DNA of 64,000 nt, from NCBI GenBank assembly GCA_021801255.1, contig JAJYYH010000039.1:2914-66913 (forward strand), given 5' to 3'. Below are positions 8,964-43,098 of this stretch, one piece after another. Both the position numbers and the translations under genes were made by a program. The notes under the pieces were generated by a model. It saw only the letters and a program-made list of their open reading frames with translations, was not told where the DNA came from and ran no database searches. The stretch is from Pseudomonadota bacterium. GTDB taxonomy: Bacteria > Pseudomonadota > Alphaproteobacteria > Acetobacterales > Acetobacteraceae. Position 1 is the stretch's first letter. Every line of letters starts with the position of its first letter.

Positions 8964-9011
8964 CATCCATGACACGGGTGGACAAACGCCCGCTCATGCC
9001 CGGAGGCCGCC

Positions 9012-12940: not shown

Positions 12941-13798
12941 ATGCCCGCCTTCACCCGCTATATCGGCATCGACTATTCGGGCGCGGAAACGCCGTCCGCC
13001 AGCCTGAGGGGCTTGCGCGTCTACCAGACCGAAGGCACCACACGGCCCGTCGAGGTGCCGCCGCCGCCCAGCCGGCGCACCTATTGGACCCGCAAGGGCA
13101 TCGCGGAATGGCTGGTGGAGACGCTGGCCGAGGACGTGCCGACGCTGGTCGGCATCGATCATGGTTTCTCGTTCCCGCTGCGCTATTTCGAGGTTCACCG
13201 CCTGCCGCCCGACTGGCCGGCATTCCTCGACGATTTCCAACGCCATTGGCCGACTGATGAGGACAACAGCTACGTCGATTTCGTGCGCGACGGTTCCGCC
13301 GGCAACGGGGCCGCGCGCATGGGCCATGCACGCTGGCGGCGGCTGACCGAGGAACGGGCCGGCGGCGCCAAATCGGTCTTTCATTTTGACGTGCAGGGGA
13401 CGGTCGCGAAATCCACCCATGCCGGCCTTCCGTGGCTGCGCTTCATGCGCCGGCAATTGGGCGCGCGCGTGCATTTCTGGCCGTTCGACGGCTGGGACAT
13501 TCCGGCCGGCCGCTCCGCCATTGCCGAGGTCTATCCGGCGCTGTGGAGCCGCAGCTTCGCCCGCGAGGAACGCACCGCCGACCAGCACGACGCCTTCAGC
13601 ATCGCCGCCTGGCTGTCGCGCGCTGGCCACGACGGCACCCTGGCCGCGTTCCTGAAGCCAGACCTGACACCGCCCGAGCGCACCGTGGCCCAGGTCGAGG
13701 GCTGGATACTGGGCGTGCCGGGCTTGATCCGGGCCGACGGCGAGCGCAACGATTCAAAAGGCGCCGCTTGCAATCCGCTAGCGTCAAGTTTACACTAA
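12941..13798 (+). CDS. Uncharacterised protein (possible RNase H-like/ASKHA-like fold)
   Basis: Starts MPAFTRYIGIDYSGAETP. There is a second LVGIDHGFSF motif and a conserved-looking C-terminus QVEGWILGV. It sits between the DUF4411 gene and the recombinase. The fold assignment is a guess. Confidence 0.5.
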   Translation: MPAFTRYIGIDYSGAETPSASLRGLRVYQTEGTTRPVEVPPPPSRRTYWTRKGIAEWLVETLAEDVPTLVGIDHGFSFPLRYFEVHRLPPDWPAFLDDFQRHWPTDEDNSYVDFVRDGSAGNGAARMGHARWRRLTEERAGGAKSVFHFDVQGTVAKSTHAGLPWLRFMRRQLGARVHFWPFDGWDIPAGRSAIAEVYPALWSRSFAREERTADQHDAFSIAAWLSRAGHDGTLAAFLKPDLTPPERTVAQVEGWILGVPGLIRADGERNDSKGAACNPLASSLH

Positions 13799-13803
13799 AC
13801 AGT

Positions 13804-15423
13804 ATGGCAAAGACACCGAAGCCCACACCCGCCGATCCCGCCCGCAAACAGGCGGTGATCTATGCTCGCGTCTCCTCGAAGGAGCAGGAGAAAGAGGGCT
13901 TCTCGATCCCCGCGCAATTGAAACTGCTGAAGGACTACGCCTCGGCCAACGGCTTCGCGCTCGCCCAGGAATACGTGGACGTTGAGACCGCCAAGCACAC
14001 GGGGCGCACCGCCTTCGGCGAGATGATCGCCTATCTGAAGGTCCATCCGGCCATCCGCGTGCTGCTGGTCGAGAAAACAGACCGGCTCTACCGCAACCTC
14101 AAGGACTGGGTGACCATCGACGAGTTGGACATCGAAATCCACTTTCCAAAGGAAGGGGTGGTGCTGTCGCGCGACTCGCGATCGTCGGAAAAGTTCATGC
14201 ACGGCATCAAAGTGCTGATGGCGAAGAACTACATCGACAACCTGTCCGAGGAGGCGCGCAAGGGCCAGCAGGAAAAGGCCGAGCAGGGCATCTGGCCGAC
14301 CAAATGCCCGCTGGGCTACCGCAACGCCGTCGGCCCCGACGGCAAGAAGATCATTGTCACCGATCCGGCCGTGGCCCCCGTCATCACCAAGATGTTCCAG
14401 CGCTACGCCACCGGCCAATACTCGTTGCAAGAGGTGGCGCTGATGGCGCACGGCGACGGCCTGGCCTACCGCAAGAGCGGCGCCAAGGTTCCGGTCAGCA
14501 GCATCCACAAAATCCTGCACAACCGGCTCTACACCGGCTGGTTCGAGTGGAAGGGCAAGCTGATCCAGGGACGCCACGAGGCGCTGGTCACGATCGATCT
14601 GTGGGAGCGGGCGCAGGATGTGCTCGCCGGCCGCTTCGCCAAGAAGCATCGGCGCGTCACCCACGATTTCGCCTTCTCCGGCCTGATGACCTGCGCCCAT
14701 TGCGGCTGCTCGATCGTCGGCGAGATCAAGAAGCAGCGCTACGTCTACTATCACTGCACCGGTTATGCCGGAAAAAGCGAGGGCACGCCCGGCACCTGCC
14801 ATCGCAAATATGTCCGCGAGGAAGTGCTGGAGCAGCAGTTCACCGAGATGCTCGGGCGCCTGCGCTTCGATGACGAGGTGCTGGCCTGGGTGCGGGATGC
14901 CCTGCGCGCCAGCCATGCCGACGAACGCCGCGACCACGAGGAAGCCATCGCCCGTCTGCGGGCCGAGCACAAGCGGCTCGGCGACCGGATCAACGCCATG
15001 TATATCGACAAGCTGGATGGCAAGATCGGCGGCGACTTCTACGACCAGTTCGCCGGCCAATGGCGGGAGGAACAGGCCCGCTGCCAACGGGAGATCGACT
15101 GCCACGAATCCGCCGAGCAGTCTTACATGGACGACGGGATCAGGATTCTCGAACTGGCGCAGAACGCCCAGCGCCTGTTCGCACGCCAGGAACCGCGCCA
15201 GAAAAGGCGCCTGCTCAATTTCGTGCTATCGAACTGCATCTGGGACGATGGAAAGATCACCCCGACCTTCCGTCAACCCTTTGATCTGTTGACGGAAACC
15301 ACCGCCATCGCTGCGCGCCAGGAGGCGGCGACAGTAGCCAATTCGGCGAAAAGTGAGATTTGGCTGGGGGACCTGGATTCGAACCAAGGCTGCCCGGGTC
15401 AGAGCCGGGAGTTCTACCGCTAA
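13804..15423 (+). CDS. Large serine recombinase (resolvase/invertase catalytic domain + recombinase domain + zinc ribbon + coiled coil)
   Basis: Catalytic-Ser motif AVIYARVSSKEQEKEGFSIPAQ. Zinc-ribbon Cys cluster CAHCGCSIVG...YVYYHCTGY. Long helical C-terminal region. The last 63 nt are antisense to tRNA-Gln. Confidence 0.9.
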   Translation: MAKTPKPTPADPARKQAVIYARVSSKEQEKEGFSIPAQLKLLKDYASANGFALAQEYVDVETAKHTGRTAFGEMIAYLKVHPAIRVLLVEKTDRLYRNLKDWVTIDELDIEIHFPKEGVVLSRDSRSSEKFMHGIKVLMAKNYIDNLSEEARKGQQEKAEQGIWPTKCPLGYRNAVGPDGKKIIVTDPAVAPVITKMFQRYATGQYSLQEVALMAHGDGLAYRKSGAKVPVSSIHKILHNRLYTGWFEWKGKLIQGRHEALVTIDLWERAQDVLAGRFAKKHRRVTHDFAFSGLMTCAHCGCSIVGEIKKQRYVYYHCTGYAGKSEGTPGTCHRKYVREEVLEQQFTEMLGRLRFDDEVLAWVRDALRASHADERRDHEEAIARLRAEHKRLGDRINAMYIDKLDGKIGGDFYDQFAGQWREEQARCQREIDCHESAEQSYMDDGIRILELAQNAQRLFARQEPRQKRRLLNFVLSNCIWDDGKITPTFRQPFDLLTETTAIAARQEAATVANSAKSEIWLGDLDSNQGCPGQSREFYR

Positions 15424-15434
15424 ACTATCCCCCA
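15361..15434 (-). tRNA. tRNA-Gln (anticodon CUG)
   Basis: Manual cloverleaf of the minus strand: acceptor TGGGGGA/TCCCCCA (U1-A72, typical of bacterial tRNA-Gln), D arm GTT..AAC, anticodon stem CCCGG/CCGGG with loop CT-CTG-AC, T arm CTTGG-TTCGAAT-CCAGG, discriminator G, encoded CCA. Confidence 0.9.
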
Positions 15435-27906: not shown

Positions 27907-28584
27907 ATGGCCTTCATTTTTTTGCGTGAGACCATCCGGGCCTATCGCGAGAAGGATCCGGCGGCGCATTCCGACCTCGAGGTGCTGCTCTGCTATCCCG
28001 GTCTCCATGCCCTGATGTGGCATCGCCTGGCGCAAGCGCTGTGGCGCCGCCGCCTGCGCCTGCTCGGGCGGCTGGTTTCCTATCTCAGCCGCTGGCTCAC
28101 TGGCATCGAGATCCATCCCGGCGCGCGCGTCGGCCGGCGCGTGATCATCGACCACGGCATGGGGGTGGTGATCGGCGAGACCGCCGAAATCGGCGATGAT
28201 GTCTATATGTATCATCAGGTTACCTTGGGGGGCACCACCTCCGAGCGGGGCAAGCGCCACCCCACCATCGGCAACGGCGTGATCATCGGCGCCGGGGCGA
28301 AGGTGCTCGGGGCGATCACCATCGGCGACAACGCCCGGATCGGCGCCAATGCGGTGGTGGTGCAGCCGGTCGCGGCCGGCACCACGGTGGTGGGCATTCC
28401 CGCGCGCCCGATCGAGCGTCAGCGCCACGCCCCCTGCTTCGATCCCTATGGCACGCCGGCCGAGGCGGCGCTCGATCCGCTGCTCCGCGACGTGGAAAGC
28501 CTCCGCGCCGAACTCACCGAGGTCGAGGCGCGGCTCGCGCGGCTCGCGTCGGGGGTGAAAATGCGCGAGTCGGCCGGAGATTAG
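27907..28584 (+). CDS. cysE: Serine O-acetyltransferase
   Basis: [49 protein letters not shown], and hexapeptide repeats. Confidence 0.9.
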
Positions 28585-28587
28585 AGC

Positions 28588-29037
28588 ATGCAACTCTCCA
28601 CACGCGGGCGCTACGCGGTCATCGCCCTGGTTGATCTCGCCGCGCACGCGGAACCCGATTGCGCCGCCCGGCCGGTGAGCCTCGCCGAGGTCGCCGCGCG
28701 CCAGGGCATTAGCCCAGCCTATCTCGAACAGATTTTCGGCCGCCTGCGCCGCGCCGGCCTGGTGATCTCGGCGCGCGGCCCGGGCGGCGGCTACTGCCTC
28801 GCGCGGCCGGCCATGCAAATCACCATCGCGACCGTCATCCGCGCCGTCGATGAAGGCAACGCCGAGGGGTGCTGCCTTGACGGCATCGCGATCGGCGCCG
28901 CGGACGGCCCGACGGCCGCGCTGTGGCAGGAACTCTGCCAGCGTATCCATGACTTCCTCGACGCCATCACCCTCGCCGACGTGGTCGCCGGCAAGTGCGG
29001 CGTGGGGCATCCCGGCAAACCGCGGAAAGCTGCTTGA
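28588..29037 (+). CDS. Rrf2-family transcriptional regulator (IscR/CymR-like)
   Basis: MQLSTRGRYAVIALVDLA...ISPAYLEQIFGRLRRAGLVISARGPGGGY. Confidence 0.9.
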   Translation: MQLSTRGRYAVIALVDLAAHAEPDCAARPVSLAEVAARQGISPAYLEQIFGRLRRAGLVISARGPGGGYCLARPAMQITIATVIRAVDEGNAEGCCLDGIAIGAADGPTAALWQELCQRIHDFLDAITLADVVAGKCGVGHPGKPRKAA

Positions 29038-29038
29038 A

Positions 29039-30148
29039 ATGCCGCGCGCGGAAACCGCGCAGCGGCGGGTCTATCTCGACGCGAACGCCACCGAGCCGCT
29101 GCTTCCCGCGGCGCGCGCGGCGCTGCTCGCGGCGTTTGACCAGATCGGCAATCCCGCCTCCGTGCATGGCCCCGGCCGCGCCGCCCGTGCGCTCCTCGAA
29201 GCTGCGCGCGAGACCATCGCCCAGCGCTTCGGCGCCCGCCCGGCCGATCTCGTCTTCACCTCCGGCGGTACCGAGGCCAATACCCTGGCGATCACCGGGC
29301 TTGGCATCGGGCGGAGGCGGATCATCGGCGCCACCGAACACGACGCGGTGCGCGCCGCCGCCCCGGAGGCCACGATCCTGCCAGTCGATTCCGCCGGACG
29401 CGCCGACCTCGCCGCCCTGGAGCAGATCCTGGCGGGCACGGACGACGCCTTCGTCGCCCTCATGCTCGCCAACAACGAAACCGGCGTCCTCCATCCCATC
29501 CCAGCGGCCGCGCGCCTATGCCACCGCTTCGGCGCGCATCTCCATGTCGATGCGGTGCAGGCGGCCGGGCGCCTGGCGCTCGATTGGGCGGCCCTCGGCG
29601 CCGACAGTCTCGCGCTTTCCGCCCACAAGCTCGGCGGCCCGACCGGCGTCGGGGCGCTGCTGCTCGCCCCGGACGCCGCCGATCGTCTGGTGCCGCTGAT
29701 CAAGGGTGGCGGCCAGGAGCGCGGGCGGCGCGGCGGCACCCCGGCGCTCGCCGCCATCGCCGGCTTCGCCGCCGCCGCGAGCACGCCGCCCGCCGACCTC
29801 GCCCCTTTGCGCGATGCCGCCGAAATGGCCGCGCGCGCGGCTGGCGCCATCGTCTGCGGCGCCGGCGCCGCGCGCCTGCCCAACACCACCTGCCTCGCTC
29901 TGCCCGGCGTGGCGGCGGAAACCCAGGTGATCGCGCTCGATCTCGCCGGGATCGCGGTCTCGGCGGGGGCGGCGTGCAGCTCCGGCAAGGTCGCGCGGAG
30001 CCACGTGCTGGCGGCGATGGGGCTCGGCGAGCTTGCCGGCCAGGCGATCCGCGTCTCGCTGCCGTGGAATGTCTGCGCCGACGATATCACGGCCTTCGCC
30101 GCCGCCTATCAGGCGATGGCGCGGCGCCTCGCCCGCCGCGCCGCCTGA
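29039..30148 (+). CDS. Cysteine desulfurase (NifS/IscS class V aminotransferase)
   Basis: YLDANATEP, FTSGGTEANT, PLP-Lys motif SAHKLGGP, active-site Cys loop SAGAACSSG. ATG 29039 lies 1 nt after the Rrf2 stop. Confidence 0.9.
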   Translation: MPRAETAQRRVYLDANATEPLLPAARAALLAAFDQIGNPASVHGPGRAARALLEAARETIAQRFGARPADLVFTSGGTEANTLAITGLGIGRRRIIGATEHDAVRAAAPEATILPVDSAGRADLAALEQILAGTDDAFVALMLANNETGVLHPIPAAARLCHRFGAHLHVDAVQAAGRLALDWAALGADSLALSAHKLGGPTGVGALLLAPDAADRLVPLIKGGGQERGRRGGTPALAAIAGFAAAASTPPADLAPLRDAAEMAARAAGAIVCGAGAARLPNTTCLALPGVAAETQVIALDLAGIAVSAGAACSSGKVARSHVLAAMGLGELAGQAIRVSLPWNVCADDITAFAAAYQAMARRLARRAA

Positions 30149-30238
30149 ACGCCGCGCCGGCTTGCAGGGCAATAGTGGACGTTCTACCTCCGCCGCCATC
30201 CACCCGCGCGGCCACGGCCAAGATAGAGCGAGCTCGCC

Positions 30239-30571
30239 ATGCCCAGAATGACCTTCATCGAACGCGACGGCACCAGGCGCGAGGTTGACGCCCCGCTCGG
30301 CCTCTCGGTGCTGGAAATCGCCCATCGCCACGACATCGATATCGAGGGCGCTTGTGAAGGCTCGCTCGCCTGCTCGACCTGCCACGTCATCGTCGATCCC
30401 GCCTGGTTCGGCAAACTCGCAACCCCCAGCGAAGACGAGGAGGATATGCTCGACCTCGCCTTCGGCCTGGAAAAAACCTCCCGCCTCGGCTGCCAGATCG
30501 TGATGAGCGACCAACTCGACGGCCTCACCGTCCGCCTCCCCGCCGCCACCCGCAACCTGCTCAACGAATGA
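30239..30571 (+). CDS. 2Fe-2S ferredoxin (adrenodoxin/Fdx type)
   Basis: [12 protein letters not shown]....LGCQI cysteine pattern; 110 aa. Confidence 0.9.
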
Positions 30572-30683
30572 CCACGATGCGGCGACGTGGGAAGGAAGGC
30601 AAGGCCAGGAGGGCGCCGCTCTCCTGCACCACCCGCCAGGGACAATGTCCCCGGACCCTCTCCCGGCAACCCTCCTCCAGGAT

Positions 30684-30749
30684 GGGGGTCTGGGGCTACT
30701 GGCCCCAGCGGGGCGTCCAGAGGGGCAGCGCCCCTCTGGCCTTACTTTT
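30684..30749. repeat. REP-like intergenic hairpin repeat, copy A
   Basis: tctgggg-ctactgg-ccccag followed by ccagagggg-cagcg-cccctctgg-cctta. Shares its order and core with the copies at 55444-55560 and 62009-62056. Confidence 0.7.
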
Positions 30750-30779
30750 CGCCCGTTCAGCCGCGTCGGGAGGTCATGC

Positions 30780-31856
30780 GTGAGGGTGGTGGTGGCGATG
30801 TCGGGCGGGGTGGATAGTTCCGTGGTGGCGGGGCTGTTAGCCGAGGCCGGCCATGAGGTGGTGGGGGTCACCCTGCAGCTTTACGATCATGGCGCGGCGC
30901 GCGGGCGCAAGGGCGCCTGTTGTGCCGGCCAAGACATCCATGATGCCCGCCGGGTCGCCGATCATCTGGGAATTGCGCATTACGTGATCGATGCCGAGGC
31001 GCGGTTTCGCGCCGCGGTGATCGAGGATTTTGCCGCATCTTACGCGGCCGGCGAGACGCCGGTGCCGTGCGTGCGCTGCAACCAGAGCGTGAAATTCGGC
31101 GATTTGCTGGCGCTGGCGCGCGATCTGGGGGCGGCGGCGCTGGCGACCGGGCATTATGTGCGGCGCCTTGAGGGGCCGGCGGGGGTGGAACTGCATCGCG
31201 CGGCGGATCTGGCGCGCGATCAGAGCTGGTTTCTGTTTGCCACGACCCGCGCGCAGCTCGAATTCTGTCGTTTCCCCCTGGGCGAGATGGCGAGCAAAAC
31301 GGTGGTGCGGGCGGCGGCGGCGCGGCTTGGCCTGCCAGTTGCAGAAAAGCCGGACAGCCAGGATATCTGTTTCGTTCCGGAAGGGCGTTATTCGGACGTG
31401 GTGGCGCGGCTGCGCCCGGAGGCGGCGCTGCCGGGCGAGATCGTGTCGCGCGCGGGTCGTGCGCTCGGGCGCCATGAAGGGATTGCGCACTACACCGTCG
31501 GGCAGGCCAAGCGGCTGGGGATGGCGGGGATGGCGGATGGTGTGCCGCAGGTGGTGGTGGCGCTCGATGCCACGCGGCGGCGGGTGGTGGTGGCGCCGCG
31601 CGGGGCAGCCGGTGTGCGCCGCGTCGGCCTGCGCGAGGTGAACTGGCTGGCGCCGCTGCCGACCGCCCCGGTGCCCTGCGCGGTGAAGCTCCGCGCCCGC
31701 GAGACGCCGCAGCCGGCCGTGGTGCGGCTGGGGGCGGAATGTGCGGCGACGGTCGAGCTGGACGCCCCGGCGCTTGCCGCGCCGGGCCAGGCTTGCGTGT
31801 TTTATCAGGGCACTCAGGTGCTCGGCGGCGGCTTCATCACGGCGAGCGGCGGTTGA
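30780..31856 (+). CDS. mnmA: tRNA 2-thiouridine(34) synthase
   Basis: PP-loop [13 protein letters not shown]; CCAGQD...; [13 protein letters not shown] 30780 gives the canonical (M)[10 protein letters not shown]-terminus. Confidence 0.9.
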
Positions 31857-31893
31857 CGACCTGGGGGCTGGGGCGGTATCTGAGCCCGGCTGT

Positions 31894-31968
31894 GGCGGCG
31901 TAGCTCAGCGGTAGAGCAGGGGAATCATAATCCCTTGGTCGGTGGTTCAAATCCGCCCGCCGCTACCA
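31894..31968 (+). tRNA. tRNA with CAU anticodon, elongator type (Met, or Ile2 if lysidine-modified)
   Basis: Manual fold: acceptor GGCGGCG/CGCCGCT (G1-U72), D arm GCTC-AGCGGTA-GAGC, anticodon arm GGGGA-AT-CAT-AA-TCCCT, variable loop TGGTC, T arm GGTGG-TTCAAAT-CCGCC, then A-CCA. It lacks initiator features (no C1xA72, no three G-C pairs next to the loop). Confidence 0.85.
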
Positions 31969-32273
31969 TTTACGACTGTTAGCATTTGATAATTTTTCGT
32001 AACATTTTAATAGCATTTTACCTGGCAACCCGCATCGGGTTTCGTGATCTGGAATGAGTTTTGTCCTTCACCGCGAAGGGAATGCCCCGGCGCGGTTGGC
32101 TCGCTGGATCATGGGCGCGGGAGAGATCGGCGTGCGTGTCGGGCGATAGGCTTTTCGTCGCTGCCAGGCACAAGCCGCGCGCCAGGGTCACGGGCCGGTT
32201 GCCCTGGCGCCAGCCGCGTGGCACCGTCGTTTCCACACTCGAAGCGCCCAAACGACGAAACGATGGAAGCCAC

Positions 32274-33182
32274 GTGACCCCGATCTGCGCCCGCCATCCC
32301 AACGCGTATGCCGCAAGCCCGCTCGACCGCGCGGCCAACCGGCGCGACGACGCCGGGTTCATCGCGGCGACCTTGGCCTCGCCGGAGAGCCTGTTCGTGC
32401 CGCTCTGGCGCGGGCACATTCTGCTGCGCGCGGGGCGTGCGGCGTTGCTTGCCGGACGCGCCGCCGATCCCTGCCGGGGCGCCGAGGTCATGGCATTTCT
32501 CGGCCTCTGGGAGGGGCGAGCGGTGTTTGCCGTCGAGTTCGGCGATCGCGATCCCGACGCTTCCCCGCCCGCGCTCGCCGAGGGCGCCGAATTCGCCGAT
32601 CTGCGTACCGCCGTGGGCAGCCTGCCCGCGGCCGAGGCGGCGATCCTTGCCCATGCCCGCGCGCTCATGCACTGGCGGACGCGGCATCGTTTTTGCCCGA
32701 TTTGCGGTGGCGCCTGCGCTCCCGCCAGTGCGGGACATGTCTTGGTCTGCACGCGCTGCCAGGCGCAGCATTTCCCGCGCACCGATCCCGCGGTCATCAT
32801 GCTGGTGGTGCGCGGCGATCAAGCGCTGCTCGGCCATGCGCCGCGTTTTCCTGCCGAGATGTATTCGACCCTGGCCGGCTTCGTCGAGCCGGGCGAAAGC
32901 CTCGAAGAGGCGGTGGCTCGCGAGGTGTTCGAGGAAACCGGTGTGCGGGTCGGCGCGGTGCATTATCATTCCAGCCAGCCCTGGCCGTTTCCGGCCTCGA
33001 TCATGCTCGGCTTTCATGCCAAGGCGCTGACCGAGGAGATCGTGCTTGATCACGATGAATTAGCCGATGCGCGGTGGTTTTCGCGCGCCGACCTCCGCGA
33101 CCACAAGATGCTGGGCTTCCGTCTGCCGCGCGGCGACAGTATCGCCCGGCGGCTGATCGAGGACTGGCTCGTGTCCGGCTGA
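32274..33182 (+). CDS. nudC: NAD+ diphosphatase (NUDIX, NudC type)
   Basis: Zinc ribbon CPICGG...CTRCQ, Nudix box GFVEPGESLEEAVAREVFEETG, and SQPWPFP. GTG 32274 is the proposed start. Confidence 0.85.
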   Translation: MTPICARHPNAYAASPLDRAANRRDDAGFIAATLASPESLFVPLWRGHILLRAGRAALLAGRAADPCRGAEVMAFLGLWEGRAVFAVEFGDRDPDASPPALAEGAEFADLRTAVGSLPAAEAAILAHARALMHWRTRHRFCPICGGACAPASAGHVLVCTRCQAQHFPRTDPAVIMLVVRGDQALLGHAPRFPAEMYSTLAGFVEPGESLEEAVAREVFEETGVRVGAVHYHSSQPWPFPASIMLGFHAKALTEEIVLDHDELADARWFSRADLRDHKMLGFRLPRGDSIARRLIEDWLVSG

Positions 33183-33201
33183 ACCGGCCGGGCGAAGCAC
33201 G

Positions 33202-35010
33202 ATGCTGGTTCCGGGCGTGATGGCGACGCTGGTCCTGCTGCTCGCCGCGGGGCTTGTCGCCGGGCTGGTCGGAGGGGCGGCGGCTCTGCTGCTGGCCGCG
33301 CCGCAGCGGTGGCTTGGCAGGTTCTTGTGGCTGGCGCCGCTGGGGGCGGCGGTGCTCGGGGGCCTCGTCTGCGGCGCCGGGACAGGGGGGCGGGCACTCC
33401 TCGCCCTGCCGCTTGGTCTGCCAGGATACGGCGCGGTGCTCACGATCGACGGGTTGGCGGGATTTTTCCTGATGGCGAGCGGCGTCGCGCTGGCCGCCGT
33501 GCTGCGTCTCGTCCCACCGGCCCGCCCCGCTGCCGCAGCCCTGCTCGCGGGGTTTTACGCCAGCCTGCTCGCGGCCGATGGGTTTACGCTGATCGCCGCG
33601 CTTGCCGCGACCCTGGTCGCGCTTTGGCGCCTTGTGGCGGCGGGGCGGGGGACGGTACTGGCGGGGATCGTCGGGCTCGGCGCACTCTTGCTGGCGCTGG
33701 CCCGGCTGGCGCCGCTGTTTCCCGATGGCGCACCCGATGTCGCTTTCAGCGCCATGCGCGCGGCGCCGCAGGCTGGGGCGCGGGGGGCTGCGATCGTGGC
33801 GCTGGCTTTGCTTGGCGCTGGCTTGATCGCGCTCCCCTTGCTGTGGCCTGCCCGGCTCGGGCGGCGGGTAGCGCACGAAGCCGCCCTGATCGTTGCTTTG
33901 TTGGTGCCGAGCGGGCTCTATCTCGTGCTGCGGTTCACCGGCGATCTGGCGGCGCTCGGCGCCGCGCCAGGGCAGGACGTGATAATCGTGCTGGGAGGTG
34001 CGGCGCTCATGCTGGGCGGGGCGCGGGAGGCCCTGCTTACCATAACGCTCGGCCGCATCGCCGCCGCCGTGGGCGTGGCGCTGCTCGGCGAGGCGATCCT
34101 GGCGTGCGGGGTTGCCGCCCTCGCGCGCGGCGCCGATCTCACCGATGCGGCGCACGCGGCGGCCAGCGCGGCGTTGCTGCTGGTGTTTCTGGCGAGCCTC
34201 GCGCCGGTGCTTCTGCTGCTGGTCGCGGCCGTGCTCCGCGCCGAGGCGGGAACCGAGGCGCTTGCCCGGCTCGGCGGCCTTGCCCCGCGCCTGCCGTTTA
34301 CCGCCGCAAGCGCACTGGCCGGGGCGAGCGCGCTCGCGGCGCTGCCGCCGGGACCGGGATTCGCGGCGATGGCGCTGCTGCTCGGCACGCTTTGGCATCT
34401 GCCGCGCATCGGCGGCGGCGCTGGCGCATTTGGCGCGGCACTCTTGGTGGCCCTACTCGGCGCCGGCCTGGCCCTCGGGGTTTTCGCCATGCTGCGCTTT
34501 CTTGGCCTGGGTTTTCTCGGCCCCCCACGCACCCCGCGCGCCTCGGCCGCGACCGAGAGCGATCGCCCGGCGTGCTGGGTTCTGGGCGGGCTTGCCGGGC
34601 TTCTCGCGCTGGCCGGCGTGGCCCCCGGCCTCATTCTGTGGCTTGCCAGCCCGGCGTTGGCGGTGCTGCTGCCGGCAGCGGCGGCGGTGTCAGGGGGGCT
34701 GCGGCCGGGCTGGCTCGCCTGGCTCGCACCACCGCTCCTGGCCGGGCTGCTCGTCGCGCTGGTTGCCTTGATGCAACGCTTTCGCGGCGCGCAGGCGGAT
34801 GCCGCGCGGCCGGAATCGGCTTGGCAGGAGGGCTATGGTCCGCCGCCGCGCTGGCTGCCTTTCGGTGATCCTGCGACGCTGATCGACCCGGCTTGCTTCA
34901 CCGCGTCATGGCGCTGCGCCGAACGCCCGCTTGGGGCGGCGCTGGCGCGGCTTGCCCGGCGCCCGCGCGCTGCCTGGCGAGCGGGCTGCGCCGCTTGGTG
35001 GGAGGGATGA
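33202..35010 (+). CDS. Antiporter-like membrane subunit (HyfB/NuoL family) of a hydrogenase-related complex, highly divergent
   Basis: About 14+ TM, Ala/Leu/Gly-rich. LTIDGLAGFFL resembles the HyfB/NuoL N-terminal motif. The C-terminal ESAWQEGYGPPP resembles GDAWACGYG of HyfB. First gene of a four-gene coupled operon. Confidence 0.55.
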   Translation: MLVPGVMATLVLLLAAGLVAGLVGGAAALLLAAPQRWLGRFLWLAPLGAAVLGGLVCGAGTGGRALLALPLGLPGYGAVLTIDGLAGFFLMASGVALAAVLRLVPPARPAAAALLAGFYASLLAADGFTLIAALAATLVALWRLVAAGRGTVLAGIVGLGALLLALARLAPLFPDGAPDVAFSAMRAAPQAGARGAAIVALALLGAGLIALPLLWPARLGRRVAHEAALIVALLVPSGLYLVLRFTGDLAALGAAPGQDVIIVLGGAALMLGGAREALLTITLGRIAAAVGVALLGEAILACGVAALARGADLTDAAHAAASAALLLVFLASLAPVLLLLVAAVLRAEAGTEALARLGGLAPRLPFTAASALAGASALAALPPGPGFAAMALLLGTLWHLPRIGGGAGAFGAALLVALLGAGLALGVFAMLRFLGLGFLGPPRTPRASAATESDRPACWVLGGLAGLLALAGVAPGLILWLASPALAVLLPAAAAVSGGLRPGWLAWLAPPLLAGLLVALVALMQRFRGAQADAARPESAWQEGYGPPPRWLPFGDPATLIDPACFTASWRCAERPLGAALARLARRPRAAWRAGCAAWWEG

Positions 35011-35885
35011 TGGCGGGCATGGTGGAAATTCCGCACCTCGCCTTGATGATCGCCGCGGCCCTGGCCCTCGGCGTGGGGGTTCGGGACAAGCCTGGGTTTG
35101 CCGCGATGCGGGAGAATTTTTTGATGTGGCGCGGGCTGTGGCGTCAGCGCGCGCGCTGGCCAGCGCCCTTGACCGGGGCGTTCTGGCTCGCGCCCGCGCT
35201 CAGTCTGGCCAGCGTCTTGCTCGCCGCCGCCCTTACGCCCTCCTTCACGACCGCCTTACCTGGTGCCGCGCTTGCTTCCCTGCCGCTGCTCGCGGGCCTG
35301 CTCGGGCTGTCGGCGCTGGCGCCGGGTCTGGCGCTGCTGGAGGGGGGAACGACGGCGGGGGGCCTCGCGCTCGGATGGCGGCTCGGCTTCGGCGTGCTCG
35401 CGACACCGATCCTGTTTCTCGTGTTGTGGAGCCTGGCGCAGCTCGCGGGCGGGGTTCTCATCGGCGGCATCAGCGCCGAGATCGCCGCGGGCGCGCCGCT
35501 CGCGCCCCGCCTGCTCGGTCTGCTGGCCCTGGCCGCCCTGGCCCGCTGCGCTCCCGAGCCGCTGCCTTGCCCGGACCATGCGGGCCGCGCGCGCGCGGCT
35601 TTTCTTGCCGCCGCCGCGCTACGCCGCGTCGTGCTGTGCAGCCTCATCGCCGATCTGTTTTTTCCCGCCGGCCTCGCCGGGACCGAGGTCGCGGGTTGGG
35701 GGATCGGCATCCTCGCCTGGGTGATCAAGGCCGGGGCGGTGGCGCTCGCCGGGTCGGCGCTGGCCCCGGCGCGCCCAGCAACGCGGCGTCCAAGCCCGAC
35801 ACTGCTCAGCCCAGAGCTGGGCGCGGCCTGGGCGCTGGCCCTCGGTGCCGCGCTGTCGGCCGCCTTCGCGCGCGGGGCGGCATGA
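35007..35885 (+). CDS. Integral membrane subunit (possibly NuoH/HycD-like) of the hydrogenase-related complex
   Basis: ATG 35007 overlaps the upstream stop (ATGA). Polytopic Ala/Leu-rich protein. The family assignment rests on operon position and only weak similarity. Confidence 0.4.
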   Translation: MMAGMVEIPHLALMIAAALALGVGVRDKPGFAAMRENFLMWRGLWRQRARWPAPLTGAFWLAPALSLASVLLAAALTPSFTTALPGAALASLPLLAGLLGLSALAPGLALLEGGTTAGGLALGWRLGFGVLATPILFLVLWSLAQLAGGVLIGGISAEIAAGAPLAPRLLGLLALAALARCAPEPLPCPDHAGRARAAFLAAAALRRVVLCSLIADLFFPAGLAGTEVAGWGIGILAWVIKAGAVALAGSALAPARPATRRPSPTLLSPELGAAWALALGAALSAAFARGAA

Positions 35886-37357
35886 CCAGTGCCCGCGATC
35901 TTCTCGCCGCCGCGCCGCTGGAAGCGGATCTCCATCCCTGGCCGGGACGGGTGCTCGATGCGGATTCCTGGCGCGCTTTGGCCACCGCACCGGAGAGCGA
36001 AGAGCTTCTCCTGCTCGCCCTCTGGGCTTCGGGCGGGCGGGTGCGGGCGCTGTTTCGCGGCCCCGCGGGAGACATCCTGCCGGTGGTGGCGCCGCTTGCC
36101 GATCGCGGCTTCGCCGCCCTCTCGCCACACTGGCCGGTGGCGGACGATTTCGAGCGGGTGGTCGGCGATCTCTGGGGCTATCGCGCCGCGGGCGGCGCGG
36201 AGGCGCCGCTCCTCGATCATGGCTTGTGGCCCTGCACCGCCCCGCTCGCCGCCCGCCCCGGCCCGCCCGCCGCCGAGCCGGCCTGGGCGGAGTTTTTCCC
36301 CGATGCGCCTTCCGGGCAACTGGCGATCGGGCCGGCCAGCGGCGATCTCGCCGGCCCCGCCCATTGGCGGTTCCGCCTGGATGGGGAGTGCATCGCCGCC
36401 GTCGCGCGCCGGCCGGGCTATGCCCATAAGGGTCAGATCGCCTTGATGCGCGAGAGGACGGCGCGGGTTGCGGCACGCTTCGCCGCCCGCCTCGCGGCCG
36501 AGGCGACCGTCGCGCACAGCCTCGCCTTCGCCACCGCCGCCGAGGCCGCACTTGGGGTCGCCGCGCCGCCCCGTGCCGTGGCACTGCGCGGCGTGATGGC
36601 CGAGATCGAGCGCATCACGACCCATCTCTCCCGCCTCGTCACCCTTGCCGAGCTGACCGGCGCCGCGCCCGCCGCGCGGTTGGGTGCCGCGGCGCTGGCG
36701 GCGCTGCGGGAGGCTTGCGGGAGCGTTTTCGGCCATCGGCTGATGATGGACGTGCTGATCCCCGGGGGGCTCGCCGGTGATCTCGATGCCGCGGGGGCGC
36801 GCGGCCTCGCCGGCGCTCTTGATCAGGTGGAGAGCCGCCTTGCCGGCTTCTCCCTCGCCGAATCGGCGCTGGCCGGGCGTGGGCGGGTGGCGCGGGATAC
36901 CTTGCGCCGGCTCACGGGCTGCGGATTTGCCGCCCGCGCCTGTGGCAGCCGCGAAGACGCGCGCCGCAATCCTGGCTATCCGCCCTATGACCGGCTCGAT
37001 TTCGCGCTTCCCGAGATTGTTGGCGGCGATGTCGAGGCGCGGGCATGGGCGCGGCGCGAGGAGATCGCGCTCGCGCTCACCCTGGCGCGCGTGCTGCTCG
37101 CCGATCTGCCCCCCGGCCCGGTGCTGGCGCCCCTCCCGAACGGCACCGGCAAGGGGCTTGGGCTCGCCGAGGGGCCAGAGGGCGAGATCTGGCATTTTCT
37201 GGAGATCGAGGGTGGGTTGATCGTCGCGGCGTTTCCCTGCGATCCCGGCTGGCGCACCGGGAGGCTGCTGGAGGCGGCGCTGCGGGGGGCGGCGTGGGAC
37301 GAGTTCGCGCTGATCCGCGCGTCCTTCGGCGGCAGCGTGCCGGGGATGGATCTGTGA
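35882..37357 (+). CDS. Fused NuoC/NuoD-like (HycE-like) large subunit lacking NiFe-binding cysteines
   Basis: ATG 35882 overlaps the upstream stop. NuoC-like WPVADDFERVVGDLWGY. NuoD/HycE-like GPAHWRFRLDGECI...GYAHKG. ARLAAEATVAHSLAF replaces the R-x-C-G-x-C-x-x-x-H motif, and the C-terminal ASFGGSVPGMDL replaces D-P-C-x-x-C. Confidence 0.75.
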   Translation: MTSARDLLAAAPLEADLHPWPGRVLDADSWRALATAPESEELLLLALWASGGRVRALFRGPAGDILPVVAPLADRGFAALSPHWPVADDFERVVGDLWGYRAAGGAEAPLLDHGLWPCTAPLAARPGPPAAEPAWAEFFPDAPSGQLAIGPASGDLAGPAHWRFRLDGECIAAVARRPGYAHKGQIALMRERTARVAARFAARLAAEATVAHSLAFATAAEAALGVAAPPRAVALRGVMAEIERITTHLSRLVTLAELTGAAPAARLGAAALAALREACGSVFGHRLMMDVLIPGGLAGDLDAAGARGLAGALDQVESRLAGFSLAESALAGRGRVARDTLRRLTGCGFAARACGSREDARRNPGYPPYDRLDFALPEIVGGDVEARAWARREEIALALTLARVLLADLPPGPVLAPLPNGTGKGLGLAEGPEGEIWHFLEIEGGLIVAAFPCDPGWRTGRLLEAALRGAAWDEFALIRASFGGSVPGMDL

Positions 37358-37731
37358 GCCGGGCGGGTGGCGGACGGGCGGTGTTTTTTCTCGATGCCGG
37401 CGGCTGTGGCGGCTGCGCGCTCGAACTCCAGCTCGTGGTGCGGCGGGCCGGTTTCCGGCTCGCCGCGAGCCCGGCGGCCGCCGCGATCCTGCTGGTCGCG
37501 GGGCCGGTCGGCGCGGCCATGGACTACGCCCTCGAAGCCGCCTGGCAAGCCATGGCGGGGCCGAAATTTCTTGTGGCGCTTGGCGATTGCGCGATCGATG
37601 GCGGCGTGTTCCAGGGCAGCTATGCCTGCCGGGGGGGACTCGCTCGGCGCGCACCCGATCTCGTCATCCGCGGCTGCCCGCCCGATCCGGAAACCATCCT
37701 GGGCGCCCTCGCCACCCTCCCCGAGGACTGA
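37354..37731 (+). CDS. NuoB/HycG-like small subunit with retained [4Fe-4S] cysteine ligands
   Basis: GTG 37354 overlaps the upstream stop (GTGA). DAGGCGGCALE, LGDCAIDGG and RGCPPDP motifs. 125 aa. Confidence 0.75.
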   Translation: MSRAGGGRAVFFLDAGGCGGCALELQLVVRRAGFRLAASPAAAAILLVAGPVGAAMDYALEAAWQAMAGPKFLVALGDCAIDGGVFQGSYACRGGLARRAPDLVIRGCPPDPETILGALATLPED

Positions 37732-37747
37732 GCGTTTTAAAAAGAAT
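37727..37747 (+). repeat. 21-bp AT-rich direct repeat, left copy (partner 39960-39980)
   Basis: actgagcgttttaaaaagaat; includes the TGA stop of the NuoB-like gene. Confidence 0.85.
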
Positions 37748-37770
37748 GCCCTCGCGCGCCGGCGCTGGCC

Positions 37771-38268
37771 TCAATGATGGCCACTGAAGCCGCCGCCGCC
37801 ATGGAACCCACCGCCGCCAAAACCGCCGCCATGGAAGCCGCCGCCATGGAAGCCGCCGCCAAAGCCGCCATGATTGCCCGCGAAGCCGCCGAAATGGCCA
37901 CCCGGCCCGCCATAGGTATGCGCCCAGTTGCCACGGAAGCCGCCGCCCGCGGGGCCGCCAAAGGCGCGGCCATTGTAAAACCCGCCATGGCTGAAGTTAT
38001 TGAAATTATTATAGATCCCATACCCGCCGAAGCCCAGCAGACCGATGCCCGCGAAACCCAGCCCCCAGCCCCAGGGATCGTAGCCGCCGTAGCCGTAATA
38101 GGGGCCGCCCCCATAGCCATAATCGCCATAGCCGCCGTAATCGCCATAGCCGCCATCATAGCCATAGCCGGCGGTATAATAGCTCGCGGGCTCGCTGCAG
38201 GCCGCGACCAGAGCCGTGAGGCCGAGGATCGCCCAGAGATGGCGCGGCCGCTGCTTCCTGCCCAACAT
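37771..38268 (-). CDS. Gly/Tyr/His-rich putative lipoprotein
   Basis: AAGGAGA RBS 7 nt upstream of the ATG. Signal peptide with lipobox MLGRKQRPRHLWAILGLTALVAAC. The mature part is low complexity (GYGYDGGYGDYGGYGDYGYGGGPYYGYGGY ... GGFHGGGFHGGGFGGGGFHGGGGFSGHH). Confidence 0.6.
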   Translation of the reverse strand: MLGRKQRPRHLWAILGLTALVAACSEPASYYTAGYGYDGGYGDYGGYGDYGYGGGPYYGYGGYDPWGWGLGFAGIGLLGFGGYGIYNNFNNFSHGGFYNGRAFGGPAGGGFRGNWAHTYGGPGGHFGGFAGNHGGFGGGFHGGGFHGGGFGGGGFHGGGGFSGHH

Positions 38269-38443
38269 GACGTCGTCTCCTTCAAGGCACGCCCGATGCG
38301 CACCCCAATACTCCCATACATGGAAAGCCCCGATGATGCGATAACCACCCGAGGTCGATGATTTCACGATCAAATTTCGGCGACGAAATGGCATGGCGGC
38401 GGCATGTCTTCCCATATCCGCGGCGCATCCACATTTTCCTCTC

Positions 38444-39964
38444 ATGCGGGTTCATTTCATGCAGGCGGGAGGGCGGGTTGTGGCGCGCGCGACGTTAGCG
38501 GGGCTGATGCTGCTCGGGCTCGCCGCTGCGCCGACGCGCGCCGCGCCGCCCGCCCAGGGCGGCGCATCGACGGAGAGTGTTGCACCGCCGGGCCGGGTCG
38601 GGCGGATCGCTGCGCTGCGCGGGGCGGTGGCGTTGCGCCAGGCGGGGGGTGGGGTCGCGCCGGCGCGGCAGAACGATCCGCTGACGAGCGCCAGCGTGGT
38701 CGAAACCGGCGCGGGGGCACAGGTAAAACTCGAAATCGGCCCGAGCCGGCTCTGGCTCGATCAGCGGAGCCGCCTCGCCATCGATCGCCTCGATGACCAG
38801 CATTTCATCGCGACACTCAGCGCCGGCGCGCTGTTCCTTGATGTGCGCGACCCGCAACCGGGCGAGGGCTGGTATGTTCTCACCGCGCGCGCGACGCTGG
38901 TCGTGCGGCGCACCGGCCGCTTCGTCATCAACGCTGGCGATGCCACCCAGCCGAGCCGATTCTCGGCACTCGACGCGCCGGCCGATCTCGTCACCGAGGG
39001 CCGCACCCTGCATCTCGGCGTCGAGCGGAGCGCCGCGTTTCTCGGCACCGCGCCGCCCTATCGCGGTGGCATCGGCGATCTCGTGGTCGATGATTTCACC
39101 GCGCTGATGGGCCAGCACGACCCGGCCGAATACGCCTCCTCGCCGCCGGTCTTCGCCCTGCCCCCGCGGGTCGCGGCAATGACCGGGGGCGAGACGCTGA
39201 TGCAGCTCGGCAATTGGGTGAATAATCCGGCTTTCGGCCCACTCTGGTATCCCCCCGTCGGGCCGGGCTGGTCGCCCTACACGAGGGGCGGCATCTGGAC
39301 CTATGTCGCGCCCTGGGGCTGGACCTGGGTGTCCTCCGAGTCCTGGGGGTTCGCGCCGTTCCATTACGGCCGCTGGGTGGCGATCGACGGCACCTGGGCC
39401 TGGGCACCGGAGATCGCCAACGCCCCGCTCAATGCGCCGCCGATCTATGCCCCGGCCCTGGTGACGTTCCTTGGCACCAATGCCGGGGTCGGGATCGGCA
39501 GCGGCTTCGGCTTCGAGTTCGGCCTGCCGAGCGCCTACCCCTTCGCGCCGCTGGCCTGGGCGCCGCTCTGGCCGGGCGAGTTCTACCTGCCGCCCTATCC
39601 GGTCAACCGCACCTATCTCCGGGCCATCAACCGCGCCAATGTCGCCGATCCCGACCACCCCGTGGCGCCCGACCCCGCGCATCTCGCGGCGCGCCCCGGG
39701 GCTGTGACCAGCGCCGCCCTCGCGGCGGCGAGCCTGCCGGCCAGGGCCGCGCCTTCGGCCGCCGCGCCGGGCCGGGCGGAGACAGCGGAGGCGGTGGTCG
39801 ATGAGGAGCATGTCAGCGCCGAGCATGTCATGGCGCGGGTGCGGCCGGGCTTCGCCCGCGCCATGGCGGCGCGGAGCGCGGCGGCGGCACGGGCGGGATT
39901 TGCCGCCCGCACCACGAGTCTCACGGGCCTACCCGCCCGGCCACACGCCAGTTCCCATCACTGA
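38444..39964 (+). CDS. FecR-like / DUF6600-like secreted protein
   Basis: Signal-like LAGLMLLGLAAAPTRA, then a FecR-like beta region (VGRIAALRGAVALR...ATLVVRRTGRF), then a Trp/Tyr/Pro-rich segment WYPPVGPGWSPY...WGWTWVSSESWGFAPFHYGRWVAIDGTWAWAP. The start is 38444 or 38459. Confidence 0.6.
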   Translation: MRVHFMQAGGRVVARATLAGLMLLGLAAAPTRAAPPAQGGASTESVAPPGRVGRIAALRGAVALRQAGGGVAPARQNDPLTSASVVETGAGAQVKLEIGPSRLWLDQRSRLAIDRLDDQHFIATLSAGALFLDVRDPQPGEGWYVLTARATLVVRRTGRFVINAGDATQPSRFSALDAPADLVTEGRTLHLGVERSAAFLGTAPPYRGGIGDLVVDDFTALMGQHDPAEYASSPPVFALPPRVAAMTGGETLMQLGNWVNNPAFGPLWYPPVGPGWSPYTRGGIWTYVAPWGWTWVSSESWGFAPFHYGRWVAIDGTWAWAPEIANAPLNAPPIYAPALVTFLGTNAGVGIGSGFGFEFGLPSAYPFAPLAWAPLWPGEFYLPPYPVNRTYLRAINRANVADPDHPVAPDPAHLAARPGAVTSAALAAASLPARAAPSAAAPGRAETAEAVVDEEHVSAEHVMARVRPGFARAMAARSAAAARAGFAARTTSLTGLPARPHASSHH

Positions 39965-42228: not shown

Positions 42229-43098
42229 ATGCTGATCCTGCAATTGCTGGTCTCGGGGATCGAGGCCGGCGCGCTCTATGCGCTGACCGCCGCCGGCTTC
42301 GCGCTGATTTTTGGCGCGACACGGATTTTTCATTTTGCCCATGGCGCGACCTATGCGTTGGCCGGCTACGCCTTCGTACTAGCGACGCGCCTGGGCTGGG
42401 CGTGGCCGGCGGGCGTCGGGCTCGCGCTGGTCGTGGCGATCGCTTTCGGGTTGCTGCTCGAAGCCGCCGTCTATCGGCCGATCCAGCGCCATCATGGCGC
42501 GTTTTTTACGGTGTTTGTCGCGGCCTTCGGCGTGGTGATCGTCGTGCAAAGCCTGATCGAACTCAGTTTCGGCCGCGCCTTCATCGCCATTTCGAGCCCG
42601 CTCACCCGCGCCCACGAGGTCCTGCCGGGTCTCTATATCGCGCGGGTGTTCTGGCTCGCGCTCGCCACGGCCGGGGTGGTTTTCGCCGTCCTCGGCGCCT
42701 TTCTCGCGCGCACGCGGGCCGGCATCGGGCTGCGCGCGCTCGCCGAAAACCCCGATCTGCTACGCGCCTTTGGCCTCTCCTCACGCCGCCTTTCGGCGCT
42801 CGCCTTCGCGCTTGGCTCGGCACTCGCGGTGCCGGGCGCGGTGCTCGGCGCGATGACCACCGGGTTGTCGCCAGGGGTTGGCGCGCATGTCATGCTGATC
42901 AGCCTCGCCGCCTCGGTGATGGGCGGCATCGGCAGTCTGCGCGGCGCGGCGCTGGCCGGGCTCTTGCTCGGCATCGTCGAAAATCTCGTCGTCGCCGGGC
43001 TCGATACGCAGTGGAGCGAGGCGGCGGGCTTCGTTGCGCTGTTCGCCTTCATCCTGTTCCGCCCGCGCGGGATTTTTGGCGCGGCGCTGGTGCGATGA
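42229..43098 (+). CDS. livH: Branched-chain amino acid ABC transporter permease
   Basis: MLILQLLVSGIEAGALYALTAAGFALIFG... LivH-type N-terminus; 289 aa. Confidence 0.85.
   Translation: MLILQLLVSGIEAGALYALTAAGFALIFGATRIFHFAHGATYALAGYAFVLATRLGWAWPAGVGLALVVAIAFGLLLEAAVYRPIQRHHGAFFTVFVAAFGVVIVVQSLIELSFGRAFIAISSPLTRAHEVLPGLYIARVFWLALATAGVVFAVLGAFLARTRAGIGLRALAENPDLLRAFGLSSRRLSALAFALGSALAVPGAVLGAMTTGLSPGVGAHVMLISLAASVMGGIGSLRGAALAGLLLGIVENLVVAGLDTQWSEAAGFVALFAFILFRPRGIFGAALVR

Follow-up and report, generated by a model that had tools for sequence, protein, structure and literature searches.

A reduced four-gene relative of the Hyq-type hydrogenase-related complexes in Acetobacteraceae DNA

A cluster of four plus-strand genes (g1 to g4) was studied in a 64,000-nucleotide stretch of contig JAJYYH010000039.1 (assembly GCA_021801255.1, Acetobacteraceae), which is called the window below. 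A sequence-only reading had described these genes as encoding a translationally coupled membrane complex of the "energy-converting hydrogenase related" (Ehr) class, unusually minimal and sequence-degenerate, with the NiFe cysteines lost and the Fe-S subunit intact. The features are listed in Table 1. Adjacent genes share 4 nt, and the three junctions (ATGA at 35007-35010 and 35882-35885, GTGA at 37354-37357) were exactly as claimed; judged from sequence, the genes are translationally coupled. The DNA is 73-75% G+C, and its high G+C content gives rise to many spurious overlapping open reading frames (ORFs) on both strands. The four frames are nevertheless identified as the real coding frames by their G+C content at third codon positions (0.82-0.85), their homologues and their substitution patterns.

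Table 1. Positions in the window of the genes of the cluster, of sites within them and of the adjoining genes
Feature	Positions	Strand	Basis
g1, HyqB'/HyfB/NuoL-type antiporter-like subunit, 602 aa	33202..35010	+	NCBIfam, Pfam, AlphaFold2
g2, HyqC'/HycD/NuoH-type subunit, 292 aa	35007..35885	+	profile-profile match
g2, loop deletion point, ~aa 182-185	35550..35561	+	MAFFT and hhalign alignments to canonical HyqC
g3, HyqG', fused NuoC-NuoD/HycE-like large subunit without NiFe site, 491 aa	35882..37357	+	Pfam, structure matches
g3, NiFe motif L1 remnant ARLAAEATVAHS, aa 202-213	36485..36520	+	alignments to HycE, MbhL, Nqo4
g3, NiFe motif L2 remnant SFGGSVPGMDL-stop, aa 481-491	37322..37354	+	profile alignment to HycE, MbhL
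g4, HyqI'/HycG/NuoB-type small subunit, 125 aa	37354..37731	+	Pfam, structure matches
nudC, NADH pyrophosphatase, ~302 aa from GTG 32274	32274..33182	+	Pfam NUDIX, NUDIX-like, Zn_ribbon_NUD
Convergent ORF closing the cluster, outside it	37771..38445	-	minus-strand frame kept in L004, 58% aa identity

The family to which the cluster belongs was defined from homologues of the large subunit g3, of which 295 were scored, and from a scan of species-representative genomes, which gave at least 573 related loci. Most of the titled records of these loci came from Acetobacteraceae or other Rhodospirillales, including Roseomonas, Belnapia, Rhodopila, Siccirubricoccus and Acidocella. Most loci contained six genes in the order B-C-E-F-G-I and no gene of the ferredoxin (HycF/NuoI) type; this is the order of hyqBCEFGI in Azorhizobium caulinodans (Ng 2009, PMC2650096; Sprecher 2012, PMC3357923). 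The g3 protein was 38-48% identical to the Hyq large subunits. The canonical C-terminus of the latter, C-NKSFN-C-SYSGHDL in proteins of ~504 aa, fits Cys-491 and Cys-497 of the 504-aa HyqG (PMC3357923). The NiFe cysteines were absent from all of the 120 best homologues. Since both features are common across Hyq-type homologues, the loss of the NiFe cysteines and the lack of a ferredoxin-like subunit are traits of the family and not of this locus. Degli Esposti (PMC4758237) placed hyq and Ehr together among the group 4 relatives that have no canonical Ni-Fe ligands; the definition of Ehr, which goes back to Marreiros et al. 2013, was taken here from PMC6349859, PMC10284858 and PMC4758237. The home of g1 to g4, as far as homology can tell, is the Hyq-type branch of the Ehr complexes. 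The proposed Ehr-like class thus held in its homology and, under proper alignment, in its ligand loss, and was refined to the Hyq-type subfamily. Members of this cysteine-less family carry annotations such as "Ni,Fe-hydrogenase III large subunit", "nickel-dependent hydrogenase large subunit", "hydrogenase 4 subunit B" and "hydrogenase expression protein HypE". In one canonical-type Hyq protein (P0013, 672 aa, from a 1.37-Mb European Nucleotide Archive contig), the HyqG-like and HyqI-like subunits are naturally fused.

The large subunit g3 matched PF00346 (E 5.9e-14), and its best match among solved structures was HycE (7z0s_E, E 8.1e-21). Its AlphaFold2 model, built on a 76-sequence alignment, reached a pLDDT of 92 and a pTM of 0.94. 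Along its whole length, this model could be superposed on both HycE and the fused E. coli NuoCD with a TM-score of 0.86. Both NiFe-ligand motifs, which had been reported as substituted after comparison by eye, were found to be so by alignment to HycE and MbhL. Both cysteine positions of motif L1 (RVCGICGFAHS in HycE, RMCGICSFSHN in MbhL) are taken by A205 and A208, and both cysteine positions of motif L2 (SLDPCYSCTD and SIDPCLSCTD, respectively) by S485 and G488. The protein ends two residues past L2, at D490-L491, and therefore has no C-terminal maturation peptide. With respect to the complex I residues Tyr87 and His38, only H161 is kept; A206 stands where Thermus Nqo4 has its quinone-binding Tyr87, and the loop is hydrogenase-like. 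Of the near-invariant columns of canonical HyqG, 83 of 151 are retained. Displaced cysteine ligands were considered and rejected: none of the six cysteines of g3 (118, 170, 279, 347, 354 and 453) is invariant among its nine closest homologues, so the protein has no displaced thiolate site.

These losses bear on the idea that the complex is an unconventional hydrogenase (an "endo-hydrogenase" in the sense of Ludwig and co-workers) which handles H2 without a four-cysteine NiFe site. In its favour, A. caulinodans strains deleted for hyq are impaired in diazotrophic growth and in the recycling or evolution of H2, even though HyqG has no CxxC motifs (PMC2650096, PMC3357923). The authors of those papers, however, called a NiFe site in HyqG "uncertain, if not unlikely". 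The three conserved cysteines of HyqG (C258, C491 and C497 in A. caulinodans) are A256, I478 and G484 in g3, the reduced clade described below has no invariant cysteine column, the hydrogenase-type loop GPVHAGIIEPGHFRF is changed to GPASGDLAGPAHWRF, and the window contains no hyp genes. A hydrogenase of this kind is considered highly improbable.

The small subunit g4 has kept its cofactor site. It matched PF01058 (E 8.7e-19), HycG (E 3.3e-16) and MbhJ, and it retains C18 and C21 of a hydrogenase-type CxxC motif (nt 37405-37416), C79 (37588-37590) and C108 (37675-37677), which align with the [4Fe-4S] ligands of HycG and MbhJ. The claim that the hydrogenase-type ligand set was preserved therefore stands. 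The N-terminal region of canonical HyqI, ~45 aa long, is absent, and SPRHAD of HyqI has become SPAAAA. With 46 of 71 conserved columns retained, g4 is the best preserved of the four subunits, and its dN/dS (the ratio of nonsynonymous to synonymous substitution rates), 0.12-0.22, is the lowest of the four genes.

The two membrane subunits are far more altered. The protein g1 was recognized by the NCBIfam model of hydrogenase-4 subunit B (E 5.8e-25) and barely by PF00361 (22.6 bits, cut-off 21.5). Its AlphaFold2 model (pLDDT 67) was nearest to HycC of E. coli formate hydrogenlyase (TM-score 0.72), followed by NdhD, MrpD and NuoM; this model, being of moderate confidence and based on an alignment of mostly canonical HyqB, supports the fold only. 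Canonical HyqB proteins, 65-77% identical among the 120 matches listed, matched HycC and MbhH at E ~1e-55. Their Glu of transmembrane (TM) helix 5 (W-E-L-M-S), Lys of TM7 (G-S-K-A-G), Lys of TM8 (M-T-K-V-A) and Glu of TM12 (G-F-x-S-E-W) were matched by alignment to residues of HycC, MbhH and MrpA. At these positions g1 has A135, I209, P236 and M390, and the full series of substitutions is E135A, K209I, K236P, K284G, E293A, H327L, H331A, K335P and E390M. In comparison with 38 canonical HyqB proteins, only 6 of 33 conserved Lys, Glu, Asp or His columns are retained, and the C-terminal TM helix of HyqB (...LQFLTIRRYL...) is missing. The complete lack of lysine in g1 was rejected as evidence in its own right: a branched-chain amino acid permease of the window (42229-43098) has none either, and because the genome is Lys-poor overall, only position-specific losses were counted.

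The protein g2, for which no Pfam match was obtained, was identified through profiles. The profile of its clade matched canonical HyqC with a probability of 99.7% (E 1.3e-25, hhalign), and the HyqC profile in turn matched HycD (E 2.9e-53) as well as MbhM and Nad1/NuoH. By this chain of matches, what had been described as a second polytopic subunit is a NuoH/HycD homologue. It lacks the segment AENGRIPVDNPATHLELTMVHEAMxLEYSGR, the counterpart of the TM5-6 coupling loop of HycD/NuoH, and retains 2 of 25 conserved charged columns. The types assigned earlier to the other three proteins, namely HyfB/NuoL-like, fused NuoC-NuoD/HycE-like and NuoB/HycG-like, agreed with the profile and structure matches.

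The earlier statement that the window holds no NuoI/HycF-type subunit, hyp gene or formate dehydrogenase was borne out by a motif scan and by Pfam. No CxxCxxCxxxC motif was present in the six frames of the window, and Pfam scans of the other window ORFs revealed no hyp, formate dehydrogenase, hydrogenase or nuo genes. Homologues of hyqE and hyqF were not detected in the window even at E = 10, with either canonical or degenerate queries. Because of the 4-nt overlaps, there is no room for these genes inside the cluster.

At 55% identity to g3 or higher, only eight 90%-identity clusters were found in a collection of 5.8 billion clusters. Four-gene loci (B'C'G'I') are represented by the window, L009 (97% identical) and L004 (70%), and the 4-nt overlaps were also called in both of the latter. 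Three-gene loci (B'C'G') are represented by Acidibrevibacterium fodinaquatile (L001), L005/6, L007/8/11, L010, L093/94 and L095. In the three-gene loci, unrelated genes (OprB, rhodanese or EF-hand) come after the large-subunit gene, and the absence of the small subunit is therefore not an assembly artefact. No remnant of it was found by tblastn in L001, L005, L007 and L010, and none was called in L093/94 and L095.

In a neighbor-joining tree rooted on HycE, the window clade was monophyletic, its four-gene and three-gene subclades were sisters, and the whole clade was nested in a large divergent Hyq-like lineage; this placement within the HyqG radiation comes from a distance-based tree without support values. 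The nearest outgroup, L091 and L092, has six genes that are already degenerate: B lacks lysine altogether, F has been cut to 395 aa and contains 0-1 lysines, and C, E and F of L092 were undetected by Pfam. In L091, C and E' form a single ORF of 474 aa (7396-8820). Elsewhere in the divergent lineage, there are loci with five genes and loci in which E and F appear to be fused. In L025 (8169-10004) and L048 (8481-9986), the interval between C and G holds a single ORF of 500-611 aa that is only faintly similar to hyqE and hyqF. Judged by these comparisons, the cluster lies at the reduced end of a degenerate Hyq lineage, and its novel part appears to be the loss of hyqE and hyqF together with the degeneration of conserved residues. 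The description of the cluster as unusually minimal and degenerate was correct and captures what is truly distinctive about it. Neither the reduced four-gene and three-gene clade nor the degenerate Hyq lineage was found described in the literature searched.

In L005/L006 (GCA_027371955.1), the reduced cluster has a canonical hyq operon as a neighbour, encoded on the other strand; the hyqB gene of that operon is ~2 kb away from nudC and ~3 kb away from the reduced cluster. The reduced cluster is thus a paralogue of the canonical operon, as shown directly in this one relative only. This proximity raises the question of whether B', C' and G' (and I') serve as alternative subunits that are swapped into a canonical HyqBCEFGI complex encoded elsewhere, borrowing its HyqE and HyqF and, in the three-gene clade, its HyqI. 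The missing subunits are exactly those which a partner operon could supply, an Acidibrevibacterium sp. metagenome-assembled genome carries a canonical HyqB (P0124), and cyanobacterial NDH-1, in which NdhD and NdhF paralogues are exchanged, would offer a parallel. However, g1 has lost the C-terminal HyqB helix, which, by analogy with the lateral helix and terminal anchor of NuoL, may brace a neighbouring antiporter-like subunit, and the interface-rich NuoH loop and NuoB N-terminus are also lost. A weaker objection comes from the 3.9-Mb chromosome of A. fodinaquatile, which harbors the three-gene cluster and accounts for none of the 120 best canonical HyqB matches listed. A subunit swap is therefore regarded as unlikely.

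Selection on the cluster was estimated by the method of Nei and Gojobori. The dN/dS values of g1 to g4 against L009 were 0.12-0.27; against L004, they were 0.36 for g1, 0.28 for g2, 0.25 for g3 and 0.22 for g4. The flanking controls between the window and L004 gave 0.25 for nudC and 0.27 for the DUF6600 gene. In the three-gene clade, the values were 0.31-0.36 for g1, 0.31-0.40 for g2 and 0.19-0.24 for g3, compared with 0.12-0.20 for nudC in the same genome pairs. Constraint on the two membrane subunits appears from these figures to be somewhat relaxed, yet clearly present. Alignments of the window with L009 and L004 contained 2-8 gaps and no frameshifts, and the ORFs were intact and collinear in all nine distinct reduced-clade loci examined, whose large subunits are ~55-97% identical.

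These results were set against the possibility that g1 to g4 are decaying, functionless remnants, that is, incipient pseudogenes of a duplicated hyq operon. Such decay would account for the stepwise loss of subunits along the lineage and for the composition of the proteins, 67-79% of whose residues are Ala, Gly, Leu, Val, Pro or Arg, so that Pfam barely detects g1 and misses g2. It also has precedents in the family: in the related loci L038 (2676-5335) and L074 (5663-7677), hyqB and hyqC were matched as sets of short fragments, the pattern that frameshifted or pseudogenised copies would give, and some Hyq family members therefore do decay. However, nine distinct loci with intact, collinear ORFs, dN/dS values of 0.12-0.40 that are comparable with those of nudC and DUF6600, the high-confidence predicted fold of g3 and the conservation of the four cluster cysteines all speak against decay, which is accordingly thought quite unlikely. 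The more specific notion of a frameshifted remnant of a hyf/hyc operon was rejected on collinearity and dN/dS. Of the outcomes that had been named as incompatible with the sequence-only reading, none was encountered: there was no invariant cysteine column in the nine homologues, there were no frameshifts, and no close characterised complex was found.

A working energy-converting Ehr complex, in which electrons would pass from some cytoplasmic donor through the [4Fe-4S] cluster to a quinone or another acceptor in the NuoCD/NuoH cavity and thereby drive ion translocation through the antiporter-like subunit, was also weighed. The NuoL-, NuoH-, NuoCD- and NuoB-like set is the minimal core common to such machines, the ligands of the [4Fe-4S] cluster are conserved, constraint is strongest on g4, and coupling of this kind is suspected for Ehr complexes as a whole (PMC6349859). 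However, every known class of coupling residue in g1 has been replaced by non-polar residues, prolines or gaps, and the TM5-6 loop of g2 is deleted. In addition, B', C' and G' remain under selection in the sister clade, which has no Fe-S subunit, and no electron-input subunit is encoded nearby. Energy conversion of this kind is therefore improbable. Because the antiporter-type Glu and Lys residues and the NuoH coupling loop are gone, "energy-converting" in the earlier class name is probably a misnomer for g1 to g4.

The gene directly upstream of g1 is nudC, whose start was inferred from homologues of 302-309 aa. The spacer between nudC and g1 (33183-33201) is 19 nt long, and it is 18-24 nt long in all eight other distinct reduced-clade loci. 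A spacer this short in every reduced-clade locus suggests a nudC-B'C'G'(I') operon; in the window, nudC would probably be the first gene of the transcription unit and be transcribed together with g1 to g4. Synteny with nudC was not accepted as proof that gene and cluster are functionally linked, since a monophyletic clade may simply have inherited it and the canonical operon of L062 also adjoins nudC. A scan of 31500-38600 for sigma-70 promoters and terminators revealed nothing above shuffled expectation. A DUF6600/FecR-like gene lies near nudC and the reduced cluster in three distinct loci (window 38393-39964, L004 6247-6981 and L005 4843-6348).

Taken together, the sequence data indicate that the cluster is neither a hydrogenase nor a canonical pump nor a pseudogene. 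Every known determinant of catalysis and coupling has been lost, apart from the four cysteines that ligate the NuoB-type [4Fe-4S] cluster; besides the NiFe ligands, the losses include the Glu, Lys and His residues of antiporter helices TM5, TM7, TM8, TM11 and TM12 and the glutamates of the NuoH TM5-6 loop. We lean, with moderate confidence, towards the reading that g1 to g4 are a reduced, "deranged" member of a divergent Hyq-type (Ehr) lineage which has been kept for a structural or scaffolding role or for a redox role of its single cluster. The four proteins would assemble into a small L-shaped membrane complex, with a NuoB'-NuoCD' head that contains one [4Fe-4S] cluster docked on NuoH' and one antiporter-like subunit alongside. 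Such a complex would be unable to make or oxidise H2 at a NiFe site or to pump ions by the canonical lysine/glutamate relay. Because the site and the relay are lost, the retained role would not be energy conversion. Most likely it would be structural or scaffolding, that of a pseudo-enzyme, as in the ligand-less respiratory proteins of Acetobacteraceae: bc1 and COX1-like proteins without metal ligands are kept in this family, and a structural role has been proposed for them (Degli Esposti et al. 2023, PMC10715153). In the four-gene version, the single constrained cluster may add low-rate electron exchange or redox sensing.

Several points weigh against this reading. Conservation of the cluster cysteines and the low dN/dS of g4 suggest that redox chemistry still matters in the four-gene subclade; a purely structural role, which would not require such chemistry, is to this extent disfavoured. 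Genetic data on canonical Hyq connect its operon with the recycling of H2 even though the cysteines are missing (PMC2650096, PMC3357923), and the complex may have an unconventional active site or ion path. Finally, the dN/dS values given above are crude estimates in DNA of 75% G+C, with dS near saturation for the distant pairs.

A bolder proposal can be put forward only tentatively and is, on balance, doubtful: the B'-C'-G' core would be a new functional class, a membrane module derived from complex I and hydrogenases that is neither redox-driven nor ion-pumping, and the four-gene version of the window would be an intermediate with one [4Fe-4S] cluster. The role of such a module may be, for example, to stabilise another respiratory complex, to organise the membrane, or to bind or sense a ligand in the remodelled NuoD/NuoH cavity. 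Its function may also be tied to the probably co-transcribed NADH pyrophosphatase NudC.

The other window genes recognized by Pfam include a type I restriction-modification/recombinase island, transporters, a P450, an EAL protein, an isc-like group, mnmA, nudC, a DUF6600 protein, an ABC transporter, SMC, DsbA, MutY and leucyl-tRNA synthetase (LeuRS). An Rfam scan detected no RNA besides two tRNAs. The island is apparently an integrated mobile element (3857-15434). Besides HsdR (5004-7502) and HsdM (7381-9309), it contains an IrrE/M78 peptidase-like gene (11017-12297). It also carries a large serine recombinase (13390-15423) that ends against a minus-strand tRNA gene (15364-15434). The isc-like group (27907-31965) consists of a CysE-like hexapeptide transferase, an Rrf2/IscR regulator, an IscS/NifS-like class-V aminotransferase and a 2Fe-2S ferredoxin; next come mnmA and a plus-strand tRNA gene (31894-31965) directly upstream of nudC. 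A link between the cluster and these isc-like genes, 3-9 kb upstream, was rejected as coincidental, the neighbourhood being absent in relatives with an available upstream flank.

Complex I, the membrane-bound hydrogenases, MBS/Mbx and Ehr share one modular core, the minimal functional unit of which is debated. In this respect, the lineage is a natural deletion series, with six degenerate subunits in the nearest outgroup, four in the window clade and three in the sister clade. Over these stages, the lineage sheds its catalytic site, coupling loop, ion-path residues and two membrane subunits and, last of all, the Fe-S subunit; purifying selection persists at every stage. Should the proteins assemble, they would reveal the contacts that suffice to hold a NuoL-NuoH-NuoCD(-NuoB) unit together and would also demonstrate that such a unit can be selected for a purpose other than energy conversion. 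No new chemistry is demonstrated by these data, and the cluster is a probable pseudo-enzyme complex. It is also an annotation trap, as hydrogenase names can inflate the H2 metabolism inferred from Acetobacteraceae genomes and metagenomes.

Among known systems, the Hyq operon (hyqRBCEFGI of A. caulinodans and its alphaproteobacterial orthologues) has the same subunit types, namely NuoL-like HyqB, NuoH-like HyqC, fused NuoC-NuoD HyqG and NuoB-like HyqI. As in g1 to g4, its HyqG has neither CxxC motif and ends in ...DL, its HyqI has the CxxC...C...C set, and a HycF/NuoI-type subunit is missing. In contrast to Hyq, the cluster has no hyqE or hyqF and has nudC upstream in place of hyqR. It has further lost the three cysteines of HyqG, the Glu, Lys and His residues and last TM helix of HyqB, the HyqC loop and ~45 N-terminal residues of HyqI. 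On gene content (B, C, G and I of six) and on the three conserved cysteines, the sequences would place the cluster outside the definition of Hyq despite its descent from it.

The Ehr complexes likewise combine a large subunit homologous to group 4 hydrogenases and NuoD, without Ni/Fe ligands, with NuoB-, NuoC-, NuoD- and NuoH-like and Mrp/NuoL-type subunits, and by homology and ligand loss the cluster would count as one of them. Ehr complexes are, however, assumed to couple redox reactions to charge translocation, whereas g1 to g4, by the sequence test, have lost the residues concerned and have one antiporter-like subunit left.

The core of E. coli formate hydrogenlyase and hydrogenase-4 (HycC/HyfB, HycD/HyfC, HycE/HyfG and HycG/HyfI; PDB 7Z0S) gave the best solved-structure matches for all four proteins. 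It differs from the cluster, which has no NiFe ligands, maturation peptide or HycF and HycB counterparts, with no formate dehydrogenase, hyp or hycI gene in the window. Compared with group 4 [NiFe]-hydrogenases in general, the cluster has a small subunit with the four cysteines of the proximal [4Fe-4S] cluster, and it has neither L1 nor L2 ligands nor the C-terminal extension; within the 64-kb window, a HycF/NuoI-type 2x[4Fe-4S] subunit and hyp genes were likewise absent.

Complex I resembles the cluster in the fold and subunit homology of its Q-module, NuoH and NuoL, in the superposition with NuoCD (TM-score 0.86) and in the NuoB-type site for an N2-like cluster. It differs in that Tyr87 is replaced by Ala206 in g3, the NuoH loop and the acidic residues of the E-channel are missing from g1 to g4, and NuoA, NuoJ, NuoK, NuoM, NuoN, NuoI and the N-module (NuoEFG) are not encoded in the window.

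The "deranged" proteins of Acetobacteraceae belong to another enzyme family, and PMC10715153, which mentions hydrogenase once (type 1), does not deal with the case of g1 to g4. Nevertheless, they probably come from the same bacterial family as the cluster and are similar to it in that respiratory genes have been retained after the loss of cofactor or catalytic ligands.

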